Below, one piece after another: positions 5,376 to 63,379 of a stretch of 64,000 bases of DNA. Within the stretch, counting starts at the first letter, position 1; each line of letters opens with the position of its first letter. A program made the translations under genes and the position numbers. This DNA comes from Escherichia phage vB_EcoM_G50, in the sequence record NC_054917.1; one strand, written 5' to 3'. The notes beneath the pieces were generated by a model, which ran no database searches, had not been told where the DNA came from, and was given only the letters and a program-made list of their open reading frames with translations.

Positions 5376-5645
5376 TTATTTAAAACGGATAGTCGAATCC
5401 TTGAAGAATAGACCAGAACATACTGTTCCTTCTACTTTCTGCCCGGTAGGTCCAATAGCACGAAATCCAGTATGCTGGAAATCATTTTCAGAGCAACCGA
5501 ACCAATTATATCCAGTGATTTCAATATTAGTAAAACCACTTGAAGACAAAACTTTGGTTGCATTATCAGCATCAGTACATCCTACTAAAGATACTGCTAA
5601 TACTAATGCCGCGATAGAACGATTAACATATTTCATAATTTTCAC
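5376..5645 (-). CDS. small lipoprotein (39.1 position)
   Basis: 89 aa; signal peptide with lipobox LVGC. Confidence 0.55.
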   Translation of the reverse strand: MKIMKYVNRSIAALVLAVSLVGCTDADNATKVLSSSGFTNIEITGYNWFGCSENDFQHTGFRAIGPTGQKVEGTVCSGLFFKDSTIRFK

Positions 5646-6013
5646 TTAAATTTAATGGCTTGAAGGAGACTAATAATTCTCAAGCGACTTCTTTCATCTT
5701 TAACTGTAAAAGAAAGAGGGTCACCAGATTTCATAGTGATAGTGCATTCAAAATCAAAATCTTCAGGAACTTCTTCGAAGAAGTCAAATTCTTCATCATA
5801 AATTAGAACATTACTCTGAAAACTGTGAAGAATTTTTCCATCATTTCCAGATGCTGTACTAATCATTGTAACATTATTACCTTTCATATCTTCAACGATA
5901 AATTCGCTTGTAGATATTACGGCATTAATAGAACCATTCCTATAAATAGAAGAAAGTAGATATTTCTTTTCTTCACCTTCGCGAACACGATATTTCTTAC
6001 CAATTTTAAACAT
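5642..6013 (-). CDS. hypothetical protein (39.2 position)
   Basis: 123-aa ORF, ATGA overlap with downstream gene. Confidence 0.5.
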   Translation of the reverse strand: MFKIGKKYRVREGEEKKYLLSSIYRNGSINAVISTSEFIVEDMKGNNVTMISTASGNDGKILHSFQSNVLIYDEEFDFFEEVPEDFDFECTITMKSGDPLSFTVKDERSRLRIISLLQAIKFK

Positions 6014-7572: not shown

Positions 7573-8115
7573 TTAATTCAAAATAGCTACCACTGCACTA
7601 CGAGGTACTACGCTAAAATCACCCGCATGAACAACGTTCAGAAGTTCAACACCATCTTCAATCCATTGGTCTGTTACCCAACCACAGACCGAAATAAATG
7701 GGGTCTTAATAGCTACCGCATGAGTCAAAAGGTCAGTAGGATCAACTTCTTTGAAGAGGATAAGCTCTGCTTCAAAGACTATAGTTTTAATTACTTCATC
7801 ATTATCTAAACGGTGTACTCGAATCACGTAAGCTTTATTCTTATCATACCAGTTACTTTTTGAAAAACTTTTAACCACAAACTCGCCTTCACCAAAAGCA
7901 TTAGTCAATGCTTTATAACCCAAATTTAGTTCAGTAGTTTTAATTTCAGTTTCAACCAGTTTGTAGGTTTTGCCAATTTCGATGGTCCGAGCAGTCATAA
8001 ATGTTTCCTTAATTTCTAATGGTTTAACAAGAGTGCCGTACATGCTTGCTATATCCATATCAAACGGTTTAGCTACCGGATTTGGTATGTATTCAGGATT
8101 ATAATTAAATTTCAT
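7573..8115 (-). CDS. hypothetical protein with MotB-like C-terminal domain (motB.1 position)
   Basis: 180 aa; C-terminus VTDQWIEDGVELLNVV parallels motB ITDQWVEDGVKLYNVV. Confidence 0.5.
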   Translation of the reverse strand: MKFNYNPEYIPNPVAKPFDMDIASMYGTLVKPLEIKETFMTARTIEIGKTYKLVETEIKTTELNLGYKALTNAFGEGEFVVKSFSKSNWYDKNKAYVIRVHRLDNDEVIKTIVFEAELILFKEVDPTDLLTHAVAIKTPFISVCGWVTDQWIEDGVELLNVVHAGDFSVVPRSAVVAILN

Positions 8116-8117
8116 AA

Positions 8118-8660
8118 TTATCTCATTTCAATAAAATCTACGAGTTCAGCATGCGATTTGCGGAACATTACTTGGTGCCCACCAATGATAACTTCATCTT
8201 CAGGAACTTCGTATACAGCGAGATAAAATCCTTTAGAAGATAATTCTTCCCGCTCTTCTCGTGTGAACCATCTCATCATATCATATTCGCTAGCGAAAGC
8301 AAAATGATAAAGAGCTATAAACCATCCAGGAATATAATGATCTACGCCTACATATTCTTCTTTCTCAAAGTTAGTATTAATTGCTATATTAGCATTTTTA
8401 ACTAATAATTTGTCTTCGCGCGGAAGAGGAATTCTTTTGTTATCATTACTATGATGCATAAAATTAGGTCTGTCATAACCTACGTGTAATAACCACTCTT
8501 CGCTCCATGAATCTATTATACTCCTGTACGGCGTTATTTGAACACAAAGATTTCGACGTATTGTTATAGCATCTTCATTATTAAGAATACTAAACGATGA
8601 TTCAACACGATAAATTTTCATTTTATTATCCTCAGTAGCTATGGTGTTATAATACCACAA
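8118..8660 (-). CDS. hypothetical protein (motB.2 position)
   Basis: 180-aa ORF. Confidence 0.45.
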   Translation of the reverse strand: MWYYNTIATEDNKMKIYRVESSFSILNNEDAITIRRNLCVQITPYRSIIDSWSEEWLLHVGYDRPNFMHHSNDNKRIPLPREDKLLVKNANIAINTNFEKEEYVGVDHYIPGWFIALYHFAFASEYDMMRWFTREEREELSSKGFYLAVYEVPEDEVIIGGHQVMFRKSHAELVDFIEMR

Positions 8661-16117: not shown

Positions 16118-16636
16118 TTAATAACCTCGATCTTGACGCGCGAAATTTTCAGCATTTTTCAGGTAATACAGTTTAAAGATTTCTTCAGCAGTAAGACCAA
16201 GACCTTGGAACATATTCAGAACGAAATGGAGAATATCAATCATTTCAAATTTAATTTCCAACTGGTCTTGCGGAGACAAATCAGTAATCAGAGTTTCACG
16301 ACGTTCACCATGCTGCGACTTCCAAGGTTTCCATACAGCAGATGCATCTTTTTCACCATTACTCATACCACCGAGAGAAGTCAGAAGTTCACGGAATTCA
16401 TCGTCAATATAATCTTTCTGATTACGCAACCAATCAACAACTTCACCGGCAGTAGCCAAGTCATCAGGATGACGATTATATTCAGGTTTATCTTTAGCTA
16501 AACGAATCTGCAGAGATTTCTGCATGTCAAGCATAACCTGCAGCGGGTCTTTTTCATCACCGAGAATATCCCAATATTCATTTTGAGCTTTATCAGCGCC
16601 TTCGATCAGTTGACTACATTCGTTGAAATGTGGCAT
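16118..16636 (-). CDS. 56: dCTP pyrophosphatase gp56
   Basis: 172-aa ORF matching T4 gp56 as recalled. Confidence 0.88.
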   Translation of the reverse strand: MPHFNECSQLIEGADKAQNEYWDILGDEKDPLQVMLDMQKSLQIRLAKDKPEYNRHPDDLATAGEVVDWLRNQKDYIDDEFRELLTSLGGMSNGEKDASAVWKPWKSQHGERRETLITDLSPQDQLEIKFEMIDILHFVLNMFQGLGLTAEEIFKLYYLKNAENFARQDRGY

Positions 16637-16637
16637 G

Positions 16638-17288
16638 TTATTTTTCCTTTCTTATGAAGTTTTCTATCATATGTCTATAGCAGATATTAGGATAACCTGC
16701 CTTGACAGCTATTTTATTAAATTTTGTGCGCTTAGGTCTATTATTATAAACCCATAATTCATAAAGCGCATCATAACTATTCCATATTTCTCCTCGCCTA
16801 GGATTTGGTAAACCATATCGAGGCGAATTTTTACCGCTAAATCTTCCTTTTCGGGCTTTACTCATATTAGCCTTGGCTTCATCGGATATAATTTTACCTT
16901 TATGAGCTAGACGCATTTTGGCTTTAGTTTCTTCTGGAGTCTTTTTACCTTTAATCCATGACGGCTTGCCATATCTAGGATTATTTTCACCCGAGAAAAG
17001 AACAGAGTTTTGGATTTTAAGGGTTTCTATTAATCTACTTGTTAATTTAACACCTTTATTATATCGCATTAAATTTACAGCATAATGCAATCCTCTCACA
17101 TCTGGATATATTTTAGTTAATAATCTATGAGCTATAAAATGCTCACGCGCAGTTAACTCAACAAGATTGTTTTTGCCATCTGCTCCTCCCATACATCTAG
17201 GAATTATATGATGGCGTTCTTTATATCCGCCAAGATGCCGGCATTTAGCTTTTGTAATTAAAGCCGAGTAAATTTTTTGGTAATTCAC
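16638..17288 (-). mobile_element. HNH homing endonuclease (Mob family), 216 aa
   Basis: HNH motif ERHHIIPRCMGG...NLV...REHFIAH; repeated G.N.PRYG motifs; GTG start; N-terminus paralogous to mobA-like ORF at 2960-3778. Confidence 0.8.
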
Positions 17289-17321
17289 ATATATCCTTTC
17301 AATTCATGGGTTAGTAGATTA

Positions 17322-21669: not shown

Positions 21670-22014
21670 TTAAAAGAATTTAAATTTTTTCTTTGACCTT
21701 TTATTAAATGCATCTTGTAGTTGCATTGTAATACATTTTTCTACATGAGGAGCTAACTCAGCTTTTCTTTCTTGGTCAAGAACAGCAAAGTCCATTACAA
21801 CCTTTCCATCAACCCAATCTAATTTTGTCACATACACAATGTGTGTAGAACCATCTTCTAGTTTAATGACAATCTCCTGGATAACATTTTCCATGGCAGA
21901 TTTAATTATCTTAAGAGATTCATTAAAAAGACGTTCTTTTCTTTCTTCTTCCCCCTCCGAAGAGGGGGATTCGTCGATAATTTCTAGATCTAAGTCTAAA
22001 TCATCTTTATTCAT
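21670..22014 (-). CDS. 40: gp40-like head assembly protein
   Basis: Position between uvsX and 41; start taken as ATG just after uvsX stop. Confidence 0.5.
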   Translation of the reverse strand: MNKDDLDLDLEIIDESPSSEGEEERKERLFNESLKIIKSAMENVIQEIVIKLEDGSTHIVYVTKLDWVDGKVVMDFAVLDQERKAELAPHVEKCITMQLQDAFNKRSKKKFKFF

Positions 22015-23188
22015 TAAATTCTTCCATATCACTTAACTGCTCGAGGTCAGTTTCTAAATCAGCAGCTGATTTACTTTTACTTTCTGGAGATTTAAATTTT
22101 TCAACCTTTGAGTTAATCAATTCATCAACTTCAGCTTCAACAATTTCATTACTATCAATAGCACCTAACTGATAAGCACGTTTAATAGCATCTCGGAATG
22201 GTTGATGCTTAAATAAAGGACCCCAGAATGTAGTGCAGTTGGTATCTTTTGCACGCCAAGATTTTTCTTCGCGAATCATCTCGCCGGTTTCTTCGTCAAG
22301 AAATTCACGAGCATACCAGCCATTTTTAGGTTTTACCACGAATCCTAATTCTAGAGCCATATCTAACAATCCAGAATAAGGATCGATACCACCGTCAAAT
22401 TTAACATCAATAAAGAATTTACTTTTTTCTTTAACGGTACGAGATTTTTCTACATTTAGAACAAATTGATACCCCTGAAGATCAGAACCATCTTTAATCT
22501 GACGCTTACCGATAATGAATACAGTATCAGCCGAATACATTACGCCTGTACCACCTGTCATCACGGTTTTACTAAACATTTCAATTGTTTCAATTGTATG
22601 GTTAACCGCAACACATGGAATATTTTTAATGCTAAAGTAAGGAGTAACAATACGGAATAATGACTTCAGTGATTTAGCACGAGTCATATCTGCCACAGAT
22701 TTTTCATTCAAGGCATCTTCCGTTTCTTTCTTAGAAGCCATATTACCGATTGAGTCGATGAATACAATAACCTTTTCACCACGCTCAATAGCTTCAAGCT
22801 GGTTCACCATATCAATTTTCAGTTGTTCAACTGACTGAATCGGCGTATGAATTACTCGTTCCGGGTCAACTCCCATGGATCGCAAATAAGCTGGAGTAAT
22901 ACCAAATTCGCTATCATAGAATAGACAAACCGCGTCAGGATATTTGTTCAAATACGCCGCAACCATAGTCAAAGACATATTTGATTTAAAGTGTTTAGAA
23001 GGCCCTGCGAAAATAGTTAAACCAGACTGCATACCACCATCAATCGCACCAGAAATAGCAATATTAAGCATTGGAATTTTTGTACGAATTACATCCTTTT
23101 CATTAAAGAATTTAGATGTAGTCAGTTCAGCAGTCATTTTAGAAGTGGAAGCTTTAATCAAACGGGATTTTAAATCTGCAATAGACAT
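22007..23188 (-). CDS. uvsX: UvsX recombinase (RecA-like)
   Basis: 393 aa; C-terminal half identical to T4 UvsX as recalled, N-terminal half slightly diverged. Confidence 0.92.
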   Translation of the reverse strand: MSIADLKSRLIKASTSKMTAELTTSKFFNEKDVIRTKIPMLNIAISGAIDGGMQSGLTIFAGPSKHFKSNMSLTMVAAYLNKYPDAVCLFYDSEFGITPAYLRSMGVDPERVIHTPIQSVEQLKIDMVNQLEAIERGEKVIVFIDSIGNMASKKETEDALNEKSVADMTRAKSLKSLFRIVTPYFSIKNIPCVAVNHTIETIEMFSKTVMTGGTGVMYSADTVFIIGKRQIKDGSDLQGYQFVLNVEKSRTVKEKSKFFIDVKFDGGIDPYSGLLDMALELGFVVKPKNGWYAREFLDEETGEMIREEKSWRAKDTNCTTFWGPLFKHQPFRDAIKRAYQLGAIDSNEIVEAEVDELINSKVEKFKSPESKSKSAADLETDLEQLSDMEEFNE

Positions 23189-23265
23189 TCATTTTTTCCA
23201 TAGGCATCATTATATTTTCCTCACTGGTTAAAGATAGAGTAATTATAACACAATAAATTTAGGCA

Positions 23266-24114
23266 TTAATCAACTGCTATTGGATGAATAGCATTAAACT
23301 TATGAAATGCTTCTGATTTTTCTTTACGAGAAACACACATGCGAAGAACCTTTAATGGCTCGTCTTCTTCACCCAACGATTTTCGTTTTTCAATATTAGA
23401 AGTTTTCCAACGAGCTTGCTCTGGAAACTCTCTATTGATTTGCTCAAGCGCTCTATTATGTTTAGAATTACTACGAATTGAACTGCACCCGCCGGGAGCG
23501 TGTGATTTTCCAGATACAACTAGATATTTGAACAAGGCCAAATGCGGATAACCTTGATTAATTAAATTGAGAAATGCATACATATCTTCACATAAATCAA
23601 TTTTTCCATACCCAATTTGTTCTGTCGTAAGTTTTCCGAGGTCATACCATGTATTCGTGAATCCATATGAGTTTTCACGATAATTACCCCAAGATGAAGT
23701 AATTTTAAAAATTGGTAGACGAGCATGACCGTGATAATACCCGCAATCCATAGCATCCTCAACGTATTGAATTAATTCATAGAACTGTTCACGAGTTAAT
23801 TGATTAATTTTATCTACGCGCCGTTTATCGTCTCTCTTTCGTATTGAACTCATACGAATAGTAGTATCATCATCAATCATCCAGATTCGTTGACCTGCAT
23901 ACATATCAGTAATTGCTTTACGAGTACCGGCAATTCCATTAACATCATCAGGAATAGTTACAATTTTAGCTCTAGACCCATAAGCATCATAATAAGCTTT
24001 TTCTTCGTGTTCACGCACTACAATATGTGGTTCATAATCAGTCGGAAACATATCAAGGGCAGAAACTGCCCCTACGCGTTGATAGCTTGGAATTACGAAT
24101 TGAATCATTTCCAC
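23266..24114 (-). CDS. GT-A-fold glycosyltransferase, candidate DNA hmC-glucose modifying enzyme
   Basis: 282 aa with DXD-type motif (WMIDDDTT); sits between uvsX and gene 42, where T4 carries beta-gt. Confidence 0.55.
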   Translation of the reverse strand: MEMIQFVIPSYQRVGAVSALDMFPTDYEPHIVVREHEEKAYYDAYGSRAKIVTIPDDVNGIAGTRKAITDMYAGQRIWMIDDDTTIRMSSIRKRDDKRRVDKINQLTREQFYELIQYVEDAMDCGYYHGHARLPIFKITSSWGNYRENSYGFTNTWYDLGKLTTEQIGYGKIDLCEDMYAFLNLINQGYPHLALFKYLVVSGKSHAPGGCSSIRSNSKHNRALEQINREFPEQARWKTSNIEKRKSLGEEDEPLKVLRMCVSRKEKSEAFHKFNAIHPIAVD

Positions 24115-24845
24115 TCACCGTTATAATCTTTTTTCACAATATGAGTTTCGCCAGTATTCCACCAATGATCAACCAAGTAAAAATGACGAGAATATACATG
24201 AAGACTTCCAACATTCCATATAATAGAACCTGCTTTATACTGACGAGTTGAATCGCCTGCATTCAAATCAGATACTAATTTATCTAATACGTATTTTTGC
24301 CATGCATAATCATTACGGAATCCGAAGACCACGTCATTTGAGCGCATGCTTACTACTGCATTGACTTTCTTATCACGAATCAGGTACTGTACTGTATTCG
24401 TACACATGAAATCTGACATACCATCTTTATTGTAGTCAAATTGCATGGATGGACGAGTATAAATCATGATACCACGTCGAGAATCAGGATTTTGACCAAG
24501 TTCAGCTAAACACATATCATACTGAGCATAGTTATCTTCTGACCAGATAGCCCAACCATAATTCGAGTTAATTTCGCCTTTAGAAGATGCTACCTGCTGC
24601 CAAATCTTCGGTGTTTCACCTGGAATATCTTTAACGAACAAGCTCTTAGATTTATACCATTCAAGTTCACGCTGAATGTATTCATCATTAAGAGCGCCAA
24701 AAATAAACGGTTCATCTGCTACAAATGATGCGCCAATAATTTCAATAGTTTTAACGCCAGTTTTATCAACTACGAAATCTTTTTCCTTTAATGCAAGCCC
24801 CAAATGAAGACGGATTTCTTCAACTGTCATAAAGTCACTAATCAT
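24105..24845 (-). CDS. 42: dCMP hydroxymethylase gp42
   Basis: 246 aa, thymidylate-synthase-like fold; matches T4 gp42. Confidence 0.9.
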   Translation of the reverse strand: MISDFMTVEEIRLHLGLALKEKDFVVDKTGVKTIEIIGASFVADEPFIFGALNDEYIQRELEWYKSKSLFVKDIPGETPKIWQQVASSKGEINSNYGWAIWSEDNYAQYDMCLAELGQNPDSRRGIMIYTRPSMQFDYNKDGMSDFMCTNTVQYLIRDKKVNAVVSMRSNDVVFGFRNDYAWQKYVLDKLVSDLNAGDSTRQYKAGSIIWNVGSLHVYSRHFYLVDHWWNTGETHIVKKDYNGEWK

Positions 24846-28595: not shown

Positions 28596-28832
28596 TTAAA
28601 TTTCTATTGTACGACGCGATATAACGGACTTGCCATCTGTATTTGTGGTTTTGATAATCGCATGAAATGCGCGTTGGCGTGGGTAAACTAATCGTTGGAA
28701 TTCTTTTTGGAATTCTATTTGTTTATCTTCCGGGAGGTCAAAAACCAGTTGGGTAGAAGACAGACCATATGTTTGTTTTAGATTTTCGAATATTAGAAAA
28801 GCTTCGGTAAACTGAATCTCTGATTGTGTCAT
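28596..28832 (-). CDS. hypothetical small protein between regA and the gene 43 operator
   Basis: 78 codons from ATG (MTQSEIQFTEAFL...); ends just before the UUCG hairpin. Confidence 0.4.
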   Translation of the reverse strand: MTQSEIQFTEAFLIFENLKQTYGLSSTQLVFDLPEDKQIEFQKEFQRLVYPRQRAFHAIIKTTNTDGKSVISRRTIEI

Positions 28833-28842
28833 ATAATTTACC

Positions 28843-35480: not shown

Positions 35481-35496
35481 AAGGGCCGAAGCCCTT
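35481..35496 (-). terminator. C(UUCG)G hairpin after alpha-gt
   Basis: AGGGC-UUCG-GCCCU adjacent to stop codon. Confidence 0.5.
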
Positions 35497-36698
35497 TATT
35501 TTGTAATAATGTCAAACTGTTCTTTAAAGCAGAAGCTTGAATCTTGATGCTGATACAAAAATTCATATGCTTTTTCTCGCTCACGGTCATAAAGAGCTCG
35601 GTCAGATGACAGTTCTTTAATACGTTCAAATGTTGATTCCATATCATTTTCATCAAACCAAATGATACCGCTATCATGCGAGGTCAAAGGAGTATTATCA
35701 ACACGGAATTTTAAATTTTCGCCAGTAGATTTCCAAAATACCGGAATTGTTCCACATGCACCAAGCTCGAGATGAGTATATTCTAAAGAACGTTGTAGAT
35801 ATTTTTTATCCAACTTACTCAACTGATAACCAAATCCGGATTTACTCATACGTTCAAGCATTTCGCTATTTACATAACGGTCAAGAATTTGCGTTGGCAA
35901 ATTAGGAGCAATTTTAATTTGGTCTACTTGATGAAGACGATAATATTCATATGGAATTCCCTTTTCTTTAATAGGAATGAACGCTGGAGAACGTTCCAGA
36001 CCTTCCATAATAGTACTTAGTCCTGCAGGTTTAAGATGTTTTTCGTGAAAATCAAACATCTGATAAAAACCTTTCCATGTAGTCGTACGACCAATCCAAC
36101 GGTTGATATTCATGTTAATTTCAGAAACATCTTTCCAGTAGGTTGATCGAACCTTCGCAATATCCATCGGAGGTTGAAAGTTATATACTGTCGGTGCTTC
36201 TTCAATATCATCAAACAGAGAAACAGTTTCTGGATACCATTCTTTCATCAGAACTTTATTAAAATCACCATTATCAGAATGGCTAAAAATAACATCAGCT
36301 CGACGAACAGTTTCTTCTAATCCCAAATTTCGACGCAAAGAAAGAGAAGAATGGTCATGCTGATAAACTATAACACGAACCGAAGGTTTAATGTTATCAA
36401 TAATTTTTTTATAGTTATTAATAGTGTCTTCTTCAACTGAAGTAGCAGGAACTGAATTGATAATTAGAATATCACAATCATTTACCAGCTTAAGTGTTTT
36501 ATCGTATTCTTTTGCCAATAAAACCGGAATTGAAAATGATTTATAATCATGTGCACAGTTACGAGTAAATGATTTATCTTTAGCATAAACCAAAGTTACT
36601 TCATGACCATTTTTAATAAACCAATCACGTTGCTCAAGAGAAAATTTAGTTACACCGCAACCTTCAAGACCTCGAGCCATAAAAATACATACTTTCAT
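35496..36698 (-). CDS. a-gt: DNA alpha-glucosyltransferase
   Basis: 400 aa; matches T4 alpha-gt in size and position. Confidence 0.85.
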   Translation of the reverse strand: MKVCIFMARGLEGCGVTKFSLEQRDWFIKNGHEVTLVYAKDKSFTRNCAHDYKSFSIPVLLAKEYDKTLKLVNDCDILIINSVPATSVEEDTINNYKKIIDNIKPSVRVIVYQHDHSSLSLRRNLGLEETVRRADVIFSHSDNGDFNKVLMKEWYPETVSLFDDIEEAPTVYNFQPPMDIAKVRSTYWKDVSEINMNINRWIGRTTTWKGFYQMFDFHEKHLKPAGLSTIMEGLERSPAFIPIKEKGIPYEYYRLHQVDQIKIAPNLPTQILDRYVNSEMLERMSKSGFGYQLSKLDKKYLQRSLEYTHLELGACGTIPVFWKSTGENLKFRVDNTPLTSHDSGIIWFDENDMESTFERIKELSSDRALYDREREKAYEFLYQHQDSSFCFKEQFDIITK

Positions 36699-38192: not shown

Positions 38193-38270
38193 TTTCACCT
38201 CTTAGCTCAATTCATAGATCTATTATATCATAATATTTGAAGATCTATCTTAAAGCATAGAGGATATCAG

Positions 38271-38540
38271 TTATCTAAGTAAACAGTATGCTTGGAATAC
38301 TTTTTCCATCATCTTTTTAAATTCATGAATATCTATATAATGACTAGTTAAATCAGCATGATATAAAAAGTCTAAAAACTTTTCATGTGTACTAACATAT
38401 TCACTTTCATTTAATTCAGAAACATGACTTTCCCAATATCCAACACCAGTTTTATTTGGGAAAAATGAAATTTTCATGTATTGGTCAACATAGAAAATGC
38501 CATAATTTTCAATAGTAATAGAAATATTAATAAATTTCAT
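38271..38540 (-). CDS. hypothetical small protein
   Basis: 89-aa ORF. Confidence 0.4.
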   Translation of the reverse strand: MKFINISITIENYGIFYVDQYMKISFFPNKTGVGYWESHVSELNESEYVSTHEKFLDFLYHADLTSHYIDIHEFKKMMEKVFQAYCLLR

Positions 38541-43529: not shown

Positions 43530-43706
43530 TCAAGTATTGTAAAACATTCGATGCAATCGCTTATATTGTCGAATCATCTTTTTAGTAGGACGAGAATAAG
43601 TTCCTATACAAGTGGTCATATTAGGGTCAGTAGGACTTCCTTTAATAAAAAGTTTCCAAACCTTACCACCATTTAACTTTTCAGTATAAATTAATTCGGT
43701 TTTCAT
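43530..43706 (-). CDS. hypothetical small protein, 58 aa
   Basis: Hand-translated MKTELIYTEKLNGGKVWKLF... Confidence 0.4.
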   Translation of the reverse strand: MKTELIYTEKLNGGKVWKLFIKGSPTDPNMTTCIGTYSRPTKKMIRQYKRLHRMFYNT

Positions 43707-44170
43707 TAAAACGCTCGGTCAGAAAAAGAAATTTGAGTTTCAAGCCATTCAATATATTCTGCCGCGGCTTGCATTAAATTTCCTTCGTAATCATCAATAT
43801 CTTTTTTCAACGCCGATTTAGATAATGCATATGAAATGCGTTCACCCTGAAATCCAGCTTTAGGTTTATGAATAACTTGATCAATTCGTTCTACGACTTC
43901 TTCAATTTCGCCATTTTCTGCGGATTCAGTATTCCACAAGCACCAATATGTAATTGGCTTATCATAGATGTTAATAATCTTTCCATCAGAAAGTTCAATT
44001 TCAATAATTCCAGTATCAGGTTCTATATCATCTTCGCATTCTTTTGCAAGTTCACGAACTTTAAAGACAGTACCTGCACTAAGTTCCGGCCAGTAATTAC
44101 ACAGCCCTTTATCAGCACGATTAATTCTAAACCACTTATCTACTGCAATCATACCCCATCTCCATATCAA
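43706..44170 (-). CDS. hypothetical protein
   Basis: 154-aa ORF. Confidence 0.45.
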   Translation of the reverse strand: MIWRWGMIAVDKWFRINRADKGLCNYWPELSAGTVFKVRELAKECEDDIEPDTGIIEIELSDGKIINIYDKPITYWCLWNTESAENGEIEEVVERIDQVIHKPKAGFQGERISYALSKSALKKDIDDYEGNLMQAAAEYIEWLETQISFSDRAF

Positions 44171-44596: not shown

Positions 44597-44606
44597 TTTT
44601 CACCAA

Positions 44607-44816
44607 TTAATTTCGCAATTTATTAAGTTCTTCATAATCAATCCAGGATTCTAGTCCTGATGGCAAATCAGATTCAATTTCCCAAAGAAGCTCTTCAATT
44701 TTCTGAAGACGATCTAATTCTTCGGCTGGAATAGTAACCATTGACGGAGTTCTTGATACACTAATATCGTAAATCATATTTACCCCAGTTTGACCATGCA
44801 ATCGCCATATTTCCAT
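44607..44816 (-). CDS. hypothetical small protein
   Basis: 69-aa ORF. Confidence 0.4.
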   Translation of the reverse strand: MEIWRLHGQTGVNMIYDISVSRTPSMVTIPAEELDRLQKIEELLWEIESDLPSGLESWIDYEELNKLRN

Positions 44817-44995
44817 TTAGAAATAGACTTTTCACCGTTAGAATAATAAACTTCGAGTTTAGCACGATTATTTTTAATTTGAATAACCTTTGCTGTCATC
44901 AAAGTTCCATACCCGTAATAAACTGCAACCTCATCACCTACATATACCGCGCTTCCGCGGTAGTCATGGATATAATCAGTTCCTTCGAGCATCAT
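44780..44995 (-). CDS. hypothetical small protein
   Basis: 71-aa ORF. Confidence 0.4.
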   Translation of the reverse strand: MMLEGTDYIHDYRGSAVYVGDEVAVYYGYGTLMTAKVIQIKNNRAKLEVYYSNGEKSISKWKYGDCMVKLG

Positions 44996-52274: not shown

Positions 52275-52331
52275 TTTATTCTCCTTTGATTTGATAGGAC
52301 TACTATAACATAGTCCTATCAGTTTGTATAC

Positions 52332-52532
52332 TTATTTTGACATTTCTTCGATGTCACGACGATACCCGTCACGAACTTCACGAAGAGCTTCAAGGCCACA
52401 CATAGGCTCGATACCTGTAATGTGAACTTGATTAATCTGATACTCTACATCTTCTAACTGAGCGAAAACATAACGACGTTCAGCTGCACAACCAGATTTA
52501 GCTTTACCGAAACGTTTATTCAAAGTAGTCAT
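52332..52532 (-). CDS. hypothetical small protein
   Basis: 66-aa ORF. Confidence 0.4.
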   Translation of the reverse strand: MTTLNKRFGKAKSGCAAERRYVFAQLEDVEYQINQVHITGIEPMCGLEALREVRDGYRRDIEEMSK

Positions 52533-52570
52533 TTTGTATCTCCAATTTACTCATTTGTTTTGATAAATCT

Positions 52571-52600
52571 ATAGTATCAACAACTACAGACCATGTAAAC
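52571..52600 (-). promoter_or_regulatory. T4-type early promoter
   Basis: GTTTAC-18-TACTAT. Confidence 0.5.
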
Positions 52601-53664: not shown

Positions 53665-54122
53665 TCAGCCTTATATTCAATAACAGGACATACTTTAGCT
53701 TTACGAGCTTTTAAAAATTCGACGATAATCGATTTCTTGGGTTGAATAGGAGGTAAACCTTTATACGCTCTATCAATATTTTCTACGTGTAAAGCATAAT
53801 CCTTTTTCCATTTATAATCTTTATATTTTTCACGCAAATGTGCAGGAATAACAAATGAACCGATAATAAGTAAAACAACCAAAAGTGCAAGTATAAATGC
53901 TGATGGAATAAGAGTCCATAAACTACCAAAAATAAGCCATTTCTGCATGATTTCTGCGCAGATAATAGTTAGACCTGCGAGTATAGTACATCCGAAAAAA
54001 GAAACGAAAAATGTAGGAATAACAATAGACCAAAAATACGCGCACAGTGTCTTAGGTCGTTGCCATTCATCGTTAAACAATTTGAATAATTTATAGTGCC
54101 AAGAGTTTTCATTAATAATCAT
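53661..54122 (-). CDS. membrane protein (2-3 TM helices) translationally coupled to the nucleotidyltransferase
   Basis: 153 aa; ATGA overlap with downstream gene. Confidence 0.5.
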   Translation of the reverse strand: MIINENSWHYKLFKLFNDEWQRPKTLCAYFWSIVIPTFFVSFFGCTILAGLTIICAEIMQKWLIFGSLWTLIPSAFILALLVVLLIIGSFVIPAHLREKYKDYKWKKDYALHVENIDRAYKGLPPIQPKKSIIVEFLKARKAKVCPVIEYKAE

Positions 54123-54124
54123 AA

Positions 54125-54646
54125 TTATCCTTTCATTGAAGGTGTAACAGTTGTTAAATACTTAATCATAGCTTCAGCTTCTGATTTTGATAATGAAATT
54201 TCTCCATTGTTTTGACGAATAGAAATAAAATCCGGATGACGGTCACCACCAGCTTTTAAAACACACATATAAGTATCAACTTCATCTTCAATATTTGAAA
54301 TGATTGAAGCAGTTCCACATGAATGCGGTTTTTGATAAATCAATACAGCTTTTCTTCCACCGTTTGACTGTTCATAAACTTTTAACACATCAAACAAATC
54401 ACTTCTTTTATCAATAGCTAAAATGTTGTTTTCATCTTCAATGTTAAATCCTTCGGATACTTCATAAAGTGTCACCCATAAATCACCTATATCGATAGTA
54501 GCATTTTCCTTTCCATGACTTTCAAGAGCATGACAAATTTTCTTGATTTCGTCATAACTCATTTTAATAATATCATCTCCTTGACTAAGGAAGATGTCAT
54601 TTTTAAATTCAACACGAATTAAACCACTTTCACTTGAAATAAACAT
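54125..54646 (-). CDS. hypothetical protein, paralog of next ORF
   Basis: 173 aa; shares GFNIE and C-terminal motif with 54653-55186. Confidence 0.45.
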   Translation of the reverse strand: MFISSESGLIRVEFKNDIFLSQGDDIIKMSYDEIKKICHALESHGKENATIDIGDLWVTLYEVSEGFNIEDENNILAIDKRSDLFDVLKVYEQSNGGRKAVLIYQKPHSCGTASIISNIEDEVDTYMCVLKAGGDRHPDFISIRQNNGEISLSKSEAEAMIKYLTTVTPSMKG

Positions 54647-54652
54647 ATTTCC

Positions 54653-55186
54653 TCACTTTGAAATCATAGTTGGAATAACAGAATCAAGATAAGTCTTTAG
54701 TGCAATAGCTTCGTCTTTGGTAAATGTGACAATATGTGCTCGAAAATCGTCAATTTGACGAATAGTTAAGACGTCTCCATCTTCATAGCATTTTGAAACA
54801 TTTAAAATAGTTTCATCATTATGATTACAGGAGTTAGTAATAATAGCATTGCAATTTTTAAGCCATTTTAAACTATGTTTTCTTTCATTAGAATAATAAA
54901 AATATTTAATCTTAGTTATAAAATTATCCCAATTGTTAATTGATAAGCATATTGACTCGCTTTCAATATTAAATCCTGGGCATAAAGAATAGAAATGAAT
55001 TTTATGCTCATCATTAATGCTTACAATTTTATCAGTATAAGGTTTTTCAATTTGGGTTAAATGAATAATTTCGCTAGGCGTAAAATATAGCATATCGTCT
55101 TCTTGCGTCAAACGATACATATTATTTACTTTTTCTATAGCCAATTCACCAAAAAGTGAACTAACTTCTAATACTAATCGTTTCAT
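54653..55186 (-). CDS. hypothetical protein, paralog of previous ORF
   Basis: Start at MKRLVLEV after upstream stop. Confidence 0.45.
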   Translation of the reverse strand: MKRLVLEVSSLFGELAIEKVNNMYRLTQEDDMLYFTPSEIIHLTQIEKPYTDKIVSINDEHKIHFYSLCPGFNIESESICLSINNWDNFITKIKYFYYSNERKHSLKWLKNCNAIITNSCNHNDETILNVSKCYEDGDVLTIRQIDDFRAHIVTFTKDEAIALKTYLDSVIPTMISK

Positions 55187-55187
55187 A

Positions 55188-55466
55188 TTAATCCTTTTTA
55201 TTGGCACGAATTTGTTCTAAAATTTTAGAATATTCCTTTGTATCAGATTTACGTACAATTGATACACTATAAGGCATACTATCGGTGTCTTTTATAAAGC
55301 GTTCCAAATGACACTCTAACAAAATTTCTGGATTATAAATCGTGTACATCAAATTACCTGTTGCTCCACGATATTGGCAGATTTCTACTGATTGAACACC
55401 ATTCCATAATTTTGTTAAAACTAAATCACCTACTTCTAATTTAGGAAAGCCCATGTTATTCACCAA
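55188..55466 (-). CDS. hypothetical small protein
   Basis: 92-aa ORF. Confidence 0.4.
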   Translation of the reverse strand: MVNNMGFPKLEVGDLVLTKLWNGVQSVEICQYRGATGNLMYTIYNPEILLECHLERFIKDTDSMPYSVSIVRKSDTKEYSKILEQIRANKKD

Positions 55467-55641
55467 TTAAAGTTTCAATATAAGAATCAAGATTTACTTT
55501 AGCTTCTTCCATAAGAGTTTTGTATTTAATCTTGTTAGCATGTCCGGAGAAAGCTGATTCATCAATAATTGTTGATGTATGAACAGCTTTACTATACGTC
55601 TCAATTAATTCTCTTAATTTAAAAGCCTGCTCACTTGTCAT
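55456..55641 (-). CDS. hypothetical small protein
   Basis: 61-aa ORF. Confidence 0.4.
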   Translation of the reverse strand: MTSEQAFKLRELIETYSKAVHTSTIIDESAFSGHANKIKYKTLMEEAKVNLDSYIETLIGE

Positions 55642-62571: not shown

Positions 62572-63045
62572 TTATTTGAACGATTTAACGTACTGAATAG
62601 AACCTTTACTATTCACGAAAGCGATTTTACCATTTTTATTATACATGGTAGCAGTACGCTGATAGCCATAAGTTTGCTTACCAGATTGATAACCAACTAA
62701 TGCAAAATTATCTTCACCCATTTTATTCTGTTTAGCGCGAATGCGTTCATGACCATGTGCCATAAGAACCTTAGCATCACCAGTTGCAATGGATCGACGA
62801 GTTTTTTCATCTTCAACTGTATTAACAAAGTCGTCAAATGAATCAAATTTAGCATGAGATTTATTATACAGTTTTCCATCTACTGCATAATTATATCCCT
62901 GTACATCCATCTCAACTTCTGTACCATCATCCAATACAGCAGTGATTTTCTGTCCTTTTTTAAATTTCAAAAGATCAGTAAAAGATTCAGCAATAATTTG
63001 AGAATTAATAGCTGCTTCAGTAATAAATTCTTGATATGTTTTCAT
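62572..63045 (-). CDS. internal head protein with capsid targeting sequence
   Basis: 157 aa starting MKTYQEFITE (CTS consensus). Confidence 0.65.
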   Translation of the reverse strand: MKTYQEFITEAAINSQIIAESFTDLLKFKKGQKITAVLDDGTEVEMDVQGYNYAVDGKLYNKSHAKFDSFDDFVNTVEDEKTRRSIATGDAKVLMAHGHERIRAKQNKMGEDNFALVGYQSGKQTYGYQRTATMYNKNGKIAFVNSKGSIQYVKSFK

Positions 63046-63061
63046 GTGTATCCTTTAATTT

Positions 63062-63379
63062 TTATTCTTTAGGGAAGTTTTTAGAATATGCATCATAAAG
63101 CTTATTTCCAATACGGCGGAAAACTCTAGCCGCAAAACGATTTTCTGGGTTTTTAATCATGATTTGCATCATATAAGTACCCGCGTCAGAAAGAGCTTCT
63201 TCATAGTACCCGTTAATTTCTTTAAGAGTCCTACGTTTACCACCAGGACCATCAACAGTGATTTTCCATTTACCTGTAGAAGTGCGACTTGGCGGCTCAA
63301 CTTGTTCAATCCAGATATAACCGCCTTCTACACGTTGTCCTTGGGCAGATTCTGCAATAAATTCTTTAAACGTTTTCAT
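63062..63379 (-). CDS. internal head protein with capsid targeting sequence
   Basis: 105 aa starting MKTFKEFIAE. Confidence 0.65.
   Translation of the reverse strand: MKTFKEFIAESAQGQRVEGGYIWIEQVEPPSRTSTGKWKITVDGPGGKRRTLKEINGYYEEALSDAGTYMMQIMIKNPENRFAARVFRRIGNKLYDAYSKNFPKE

Follow-up and report, generated by a model that had tools for sequence, protein, structure and literature searches.

The closest described systems are those of phages T2 and T6, in which a beta-glucosyl-HMC-alpha-glucosyltransferase (ba-gt, ggt or TAGT) adds a second glucose to the alpha-glucosylated 5-hydroxymethylcytosine (hmC) of phage DNA. The original cloning paper is reportedly that of Winkler and Rueger in Nucleic Acids Res, 1993. 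The classical chemistry, as it is cited in PMC13216743, is that of Lehman and Pratt (1960), Kornberg et al. (1961) and Kuno and Lehman (1962). Gentiobiosyl-hmC accounts for ~5% in T2 and 72% in T6, and the DNA of both phages contains about 25% bare hmC and no beta-glucosyl-hmC (PMC11078745; bioRxiv 10.64898/2026.02.25.707755). A T6 delta-ba-gt mutant contains only alpha-glucosyl-hmC and is more sensitive to the Brig1 glycosylase, which in vitro degrades the mutant DNA but not wild-type T6 DNA (PMC11078745). Likewise, the BapA glucosidase frees glucose from T6 delta-g-gt DNA and not from that of the wild type (bioRxiv 10.64898/2026.02.25.707755). HPLC/MS of the DNA of phages Geo, EL and BGP yielded a 5-hmdC : alpha-glucosyl : alpha-gentiobiosyl ratio of ~1:2:2 with no beta-glucosyl form, and the authors stated that the TAGT position is syntenic with that of the T4 beta-GT (PMC13390438).

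Gene identity and genomic slot

The stretch of DNA analyzed here in its entirety (64 kb, hereafter the window) carries on its minus strand a gene that almost certainly encodes a T2/T6-type beta-glucosyl-HMC-alpha-glucosyltransferase, the enzyme adding the second glucose. Its product is identical to the T2 protein at 271 of 280 positions (97%) and to the T6 protein at 269 of 280 (96%), in full-length comparisons with no gap or one gap. The only Pfam match is PF20691, 'TET-associated glycosyltransferase' (TAGT), which scores 39.1 bits against a gathering score of 27.5 and pairs residues 5-209 of the 282-aa open frame with profile positions 2-205 of 205. PHROGs assigns the protein to phrog_842, 'beta-glucosyl-HMC-alpha-glucosyltransferase' (1.4e-88), and no NCBIfam model matches it. 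An earlier note on this DNA had proposed that the protein corresponds to the T2/T6 beta-alpha glucosyl-HMC transferase, and the 96-97% identity, the synteny, PF20691 and PHROG 842 all bear this out. The alignment spans the full length of the T2/T6 enzymes; none of full length exists with the T4 beta-gt, for which BLASTP returned no match (best E 4.1). A tblastn search with T4 beta-gt over the whole window gave a best E of 1.3, and no beta-gt was found elsewhere in it.

The slot is defined downstream by the uvsX recombinase gene (22007..23188, minus strand; Pfam T4_UVSX_C and RecA). Upstream lie gene 42 (24105..24845, minus strand; Pfam Thymidylat_synt and tblastn), whose dCMP hydroxymethylase supplies hmC, and then imm, imm.1 and the DNA polymerase gene. 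The gene order is uvsX - segA - b-gt (351 aa) - 42 in the T4 record, as the earlier note had it in placing b-gt between uvsX and gene 42, and uvsX - 280/279-aa gene - 42 in the T2 and T6 records. By blastn, DNA homology to T4 ends at 23176 and restarts at 24123, and T2 and T6 are colinear with the window across the whole slot. From these breakpoints, a 946-bp cassette without DNA homology to T4 (23177..24122) replaces the 1941-bp segA + b-gt of T4. No remnant of b-gt or segA was detected in the 77-bp spacer or elsewhere in the window, where the only segA-like signal (16656-16913) is part of a different homing-endonuclease ORF.

The six-frame ORF list places the open frame at 23266..24114 on the minus strand, with 282 aa counted from a GTG. 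Read directly, the DNA has an ATG at 24108 as the third codon of this frame, with the purine-rich GGTGAGTGGAA ahead of it. In the T2, Geo, EL, NR1 and Lutter records, the annotated homologous coding sequence begins at that ATG and has 843 nt / 280 aa, and therefore the gene is best given as 23266..24108 (minus strand, 280 aa), an assignment that combines the open frame and ATG with the T2/T6 identity, PF20691 and PHROG 842. The two extra codons GTG GAA (24109..24114, minus strand), which stem from the mechanical ORF call, are probably not translated, to judge from where the homologous coding sequences begin. The earlier description of a 282-aa protein with a DXD-type motif thus stands for the motif, which is D79-D80-D81, and is amended for the length, as the start lies 6 nt further in and leaves 280 aa. 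In the sequence, the start ATG overlaps the gene 42 stop TGA as ATGA (24105..24108, minus strand); co-transcription with gene 42 is probable, as is translational coupling of the two genes by way of this overlap.

With a GC content of 0.35-0.36, the gene does not differ from its neighbors. A sigma-70 promoter scan around the gene returned 11 sites against 11.7 expected, which is background, and the Lutter record has annotated promoters upstream of both gene 42 and uvsX. The terminator scan of the same region returned one hairpin (24074-24054, minus strand) against 1.2 expected by chance. This hairpin (24054-24074) has a 9-bp stem followed by a T-rich tail, lies within the first 20 codons of the gene and is probably meaningless.

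Conserved motifs

The window protein was aligned with nine homologues of 31-97% identity (alignment A1). Residues that are invariant in this alignment include I6-P7-S8-Y9, R11, G58, T62-R63, D79-D80-D81, D121, D175, G206-G207, S209 and R212. The window allele keeps every family-invariant residue and its reading frame is intact. The segment I6-P-S-Y-Q-R11 (24076..24093, minus strand), in which I6, P7, S8, Y9 and R11 are invariant, resembles the strand-1 nucleotide-binding motif of GT2 enzymes and aligns with IPTYNR of the GT2 enzyme 9jma. The DXD motif, predicted to bind metal and the UDP diphosphate, is encoded by GATGATGAT (23866..23874, minus strand) within W-M-I-D-D-D-T. Its aspartates, residues 79-81 in the 280-aa numbering and 81-83 in the 282-aa numbering, are invariant down to 31% identity and align with DDDD of 9jma. 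The third motif, C173-E174-D175 (23584..23592, minus strand), contains the invariant D175; we take it to be the counterpart of the (T)ED motif of GT2 enzymes, which would make D175 the candidate catalytic base.

Proposed modification pathway and allelic variation

The modification set of the window, comprising gp56, gp42, alpha-gt and TAGT, is the T2/T6 set. The gene 56 dCTPase (16118..16636, minus strand), which keeps C out of phage DNA, is a divergent allele with tblastn identities of 74% to T4 gp56 and 72% to Geo gp56. The gp42 protein is 96.7% identical to that of T4 (tblastn) and 99.6% to that of T2. The 400-aa alpha-glucosyltransferase (35496..36698, minus strand), which makes the alpha-glucosyl-hmC acceptor for TAGT, is 91% identical to the T4 enzyme and 99.25% identical to the T2 enzyme. 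In the proposed pathway, gp56 and gp42 would provide 5-hydroxymethyl-dCTP in place of dCTP, and alpha-gt would place an alpha-linked glucose on hmC in DNA after replication. By analogy with T2 and T6, TAGT would then use UDP-glucose to add a second glucose, beta-1,6 to the first, to give gentiobiosyl-hmC. The enzyme is presumably inverting, with an alpha-linked donor and a beta-linked product. The aspartates DDD (79-81) and a divalent metal probably hold the UDP diphosphate of UDP-glucose, the IPSYQR and NGIAGTR motifs probably bind the nucleotide, and D175, on the GT2 analogy, likely serves as the catalytic base that activates the 6-OH of the DNA-bound alpha-glucose. The resulting DNA would contain unmodified hmC, alpha-glucosyl-hmC and gentiobiosyl-hmC without beta-glucosyl-hmC, and the conversion of alpha-glucosyl-hmC to gentiobiosyl-hmC would hide the single alpha-glucose from the Brig1 glycosylase and the BapA glucosidase. 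The identity and synteny of the gene, its motifs and predicted fold, and the existence of its partner genes in the window come from this analysis; the gentiobiosyl-hmC product in phages with the identical protein, the T6 deletion phenotypes and the protection from Brig1 and BapA come from the work of others.

The alpha-gt proteins fall into two allele classes of ~91% mutual identity, the T2 type (T2 and the window, 99.25% identical) and the T4/T6 type (T4, T6 and Geo, ~99%), with the differences between classes concentrated in residues 47-118 and 221-298. In the window, an alpha-gt of T2 type is accompanied by a TAGT of Geo type. Because the alpha-gt of Geo is of T4/T6 type (91.5% identical to that of the window), any exact sugar ratio assumed for the window phage is uncertain.

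The TAGT gene itself also varies. Comparison of alleles showed that all T2 records (T2 gene at L002:4283-5125 and L007:3286-4128) have His in place of the invariant Arg11 and Ser in place of the nearly invariant Pro251. IMG/VR pattern scans for His11 and for DD variants were uninformative, as only five contigs contained the stretch, and 41-nt megablast probes against the phage collection were used instead; these located the His11-containing 28-mer in 8 records, all of T2 or its twin SV76. His11, which lies in the IPSYQR motif, together with Ser251 could explain the ~5% gentiobiosyl-hmC of T2. Two different lesions occur in T6 records. In AP018814 (L003:4135-4974) and its RefSeq copy NC_054907, one GAT is lost in frame and DDD becomes DD, whereas in MH550421 (L008:3138-3980) codon 10 is changed from CAA to the ochre TAA and the coding sequence is annotated from Met20. 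As T6 is the classic high-gentiobiosyl phage, either the DD form retains activity or drift has occurred in laboratory stocks. The NC_054907 (DD) protein was the query for the published AF3 model. The same GAT loss is seen in phage HP3.2 (OP978391, 98356-98396), and HP3 and HP3.1 are intact at 843 nt. The loss in HP3.2 and its absence from HP3 and HP3.1 point to in-frame slippage in (GAT)3 at the catalytic motif, at least twice independently; no paper on the HP3.2 loss was found in the literature.

These alleles bear on whether the window TAGT might be weakly active or inactive, with DNA consisting mostly of alpha-glucosyl-hmC and hmC as in T2. This is unlikely. The alpha-gt and gp42 of the window are indeed of T2 type, T2 is low in gentiobiose, and deposited genomes do carry lesions (the ochre in T6 MH550421 and DDD to DD in T6 AP018814 and HP3.2). 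However, the window frame is intact with all family-invariant residues kept, position 11 is Arg and not the T2-specific His, and in Geo and EL, whose TAGT is identical, about half of the alpha-glucosyl-hmC is converted. Ratio tuning and stock drift are both hypotheses for the T2, T6 and HP3.2 alleles, and the verdict of a T2/T6-type enzyme in the window is unchanged by them, its allele being intact.

It is conceivable, though doubtful, that the alpha-glucosyl : gentiobiosyl ratio of T-even DNA depends on which TAGT allele a phage carries and not on whether it has the gene at all. If so, the ~5% gentiobiosyl of T2 would be due to the lineage-specific His11 (plus P251S), and the GATGATGAT tract would be a recurrent site of in-frame slippage (T6 AP018814 and HP3.2). 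The window, with a T2-type alpha-gt and a TAGT with Arg11 and intact DDD, would then be a natural test of the TAGT allele against the alpha-gt allele.

Distribution of TAGT genes

A tblastn search found TAGT in 687 of 50,697 phage records. Identity is at least 90% in 473 records, nearly all of Tequatrovirus phages of Escherichia, Shigella and Yersinia, and 60-80% in ~200 more, from T4-like phages of Klebsiella, Enterobacter and Citrobacter. The T4-type beta-gt occurs at 90% identity or more in 29 phage records, versus ~473 for TAGT. Alpha-GT and beta-GT are encoded together in only 6/753 GT-encoding phage genomes, T4 included (PMC13216743). The combination of alpha-gt and TAGT is the ordinary arrangement in T4-like coliphages and T4 is the exception. 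The idea of a T4/T2-type mosaic for DNA modification finds no support, as the window holds no T4-specific modification gene and its alpha-gt + TAGT is the T2/T6 configuration.

In phages CC31 (GU323318, 22120-24026), Merlin, CF1, KM16 and STP4-a, a beta-gt (~49% identical to T4) and a TAGT (~65% identical to the window) lie side by side. This CC31-like pair is located between uvsX and gene 42, which suggests that the ancestral slot held both genes, that T4 kept beta-gt and that the T2/T6 lineage kept TAGT. Annotation of beta-gt and TAGT genes is confused in some records. RB55 (KM607002) has a true beta-gt, 100% identical to that of T4, mislabelled 'beta-glucosyl-HMC-alpha-glucosyl-transferase', and the TAGT genes of RB27 (KM607000) and AR1 (NC_027983) carry the gene name 'b-gt'. 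The annotation of AP018813 (T2) and AP018814 (T6) is largely nonsensical, with alpha-gt labelled 'N-acetylmuramoyl-L-alanine amidase'.

A rival reading makes the window protein a TAGT-family transferase of other specificity, for instance one that attaches a different sugar, forms a different linkage or acts directly on hmC. Members of the family are heterogeneous; homologues of 48-66% identity adjoin beta-gt in CC31-like phages, others have no alpha- or beta-GT partner, and there may be distinct TAGT kinds (PMC13216743). Another specificity is suspected for such solitary or beta-gt-associated homologues of other phages. For the window copy it is very improbable, given 96-97% identity to the T2 and T6 enzymes, an identical protein in Geo and EL, for which hmC-linked gentiobiose has been measured directly, and an alpha-gt as genome partner, as in T2 and T6.

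Predicted fold

An AlphaFold2 model computed on alignment A1 is of moderate quality, with a mean pLDDT of 68.9 and a pTM of 0.71. The pLDDT is 83-95 over the N-terminal 80 residues and below 50 in two loops, 126-151 and 194-211. As modeled, the protein has a GT-A fold that is GT2-like. PDB sequence searches with the single protein and with a family profile gave no significant match, the best profile E being 0.24 (9jma); no family member thus has a solved structure by this search, and the fold rests on prediction. Pfam Glycos_transf_2 does not match at E <= 1. The window protein is GT2-like in fold and motifs, yet it is not filed as a GT2 member. Published analysis places TAGT as a sister group to GT2, outside GT2 proper (PMC13216743).

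A divergent T4-type beta-glucosyltransferase of GT-B fold making beta-glucosyl-hmC in the same slot has next to no probability, as only the position between uvsX and gene 42 and the name 'b-gt' given to TAGT genes in some GenBank records (RB27, AR1) speak for it, and it was rejected since the protein lacks both sequence similarity to T4 beta-gt (BLASTP and tblastn, above) and the two-Rossmann-domain fold of GT-B enzymes. The T2/T6 TAGT assignment agrees with everything tested, that is, homology, PF20691, slot, alpha-gt and gp42 partners, invariant residues and the predicted GT-A fold.

The wider window

Beginning at rIIA, the window runs colinear with T4 from position 12 to ~67,000, with the exception of 13 short replaced segments. 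An ORF at 16638-17291 resembles the homing endonuclease MobD, with 34% identity to T4 MobD over residues 1-246 and a NUMOD3 motif, and lies where T4 and Geo have dam. No Dam homologue was found in the 64 kb (tblastn E <= 1e-3), so the phage may lack GATC adenine methylation. Gene 56 (16118-16636) is 72-74% identical to the T4 and Geo alleles and its flanking genes ~96%; it adjoins the homing-endonuclease ORF, which fits the localized divergence seen around homing sites. At the sites where T4 has mobB, mobC, mobD, segA and the nrdD intron with I-TevII, the window lacks them.

Internal proteins are known to inhibit glucose-dependent restriction (GmrSD). In place of T4 denV, ipII and ipIII, the window has two ORFs at 62572-63379, one of 157 aa (Pfam DUF7412) and one of 105 aa. 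Each begins with MKT(Y/F)(Q/K)EFI.E, the capsid-targeting N-terminus of T-even internal proteins. The match to ipII is weak (E 1.7e-4), and no denV or ipIII homologue was found in the window. These replacement ORFs may matter for gentiobiosylated DNA. Nine further segments without T4 DNA homology (5639-6010, 7686-8129, 28597-28841, 38266-38525, 43578-43714, 44604-44990, 52285-52593, 53666-54627 and 55185-55629) hold small ORFs of the usual T-even accessory kind, among them a MotB-like C-terminus, the RB18 ORF43.1 family, DUF7200, a y05I-like putative transcription factor and a phage tudor domain.

Implications and comparison with known systems

The literature already describes the enzyme, the slot it occupies, the class of its fold and its counter-defense role, and hence the importance of this locus is modest. 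The annotation nevertheless predicts the DNA chemistry, namely hmC, alpha-glucosyl-hmC and gentiobiosyl-hmC with no beta-glucosyl-hmC. Brig1 and BapA need a single alpha-glucose, and the window phage should have partial protection from both but stay sensitive to GmrSD/BrxU-type enzymes. The 5hmC glycosylase Brig3 should still act through the hmC that stays bare, about a quarter to a third of it. Such predicted defense behavior is useful in choosing or engineering T4-like phages for therapy.

The window TAGT shares its length, slot, conserved motifs and partner alpha-gt with the TAGTs of T2 and T6, at 96-97% identity. It differs from the T2 protein by nine substitutions, including Arg11 and Pro251 where T2 has His and Ser. 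Together with Geo and EL it belongs to allele class V50/I89/K95/R97/I101/S202/H203, whereas T2, T6 and NR1 have I/M/R/C/V/A/Q at these positions. Geo and EL have exactly the same protein (100% identity). At the nucleotide level the gene is 99.4-99.8% identical to the TAGT genes of the Durham-collection phages Geo, EL and BGP and of Lutter and slur03/08/14, with 99.8% to Geo and BGP and 99.4% to EL. Geo differs in having a T4/T6-type alpha-gt, a dam gene and a different gene 56 allele, whereas the window has a T2-type alpha-gt and no dam homologue.

The T4 beta-gt (GT-B, PDB 1JG7) occupies the same slot, uses the same UDP-glucose donor, serves the same purpose of hmC hypermodification and forms a beta-linked product. 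However, its sequence and fold are unrelated, and it acts on bare hmC and not, as TAGT does, on alpha-glucosyl-hmC. The GT2 enzymes of GT-A fold (TarP 6H1J, RmlT 8BZ4, BcsA, SpsA and AvpGT 9JMA) show no significant sequence match to TAGT, and their acceptors are lipid-, protein- or polysaccharide-linked sugars, whereas that of TAGT is a sugar on duplex DNA. The TAGT homologues of CC31, Klebsiella and Enterobacter phages belong to the same Pfam family and lie next to gene 42 with 64-66% identity, but they sit beside a beta-gt homologue (49% identical to T4), whereas the window TAGT is paired with an alpha-gt.
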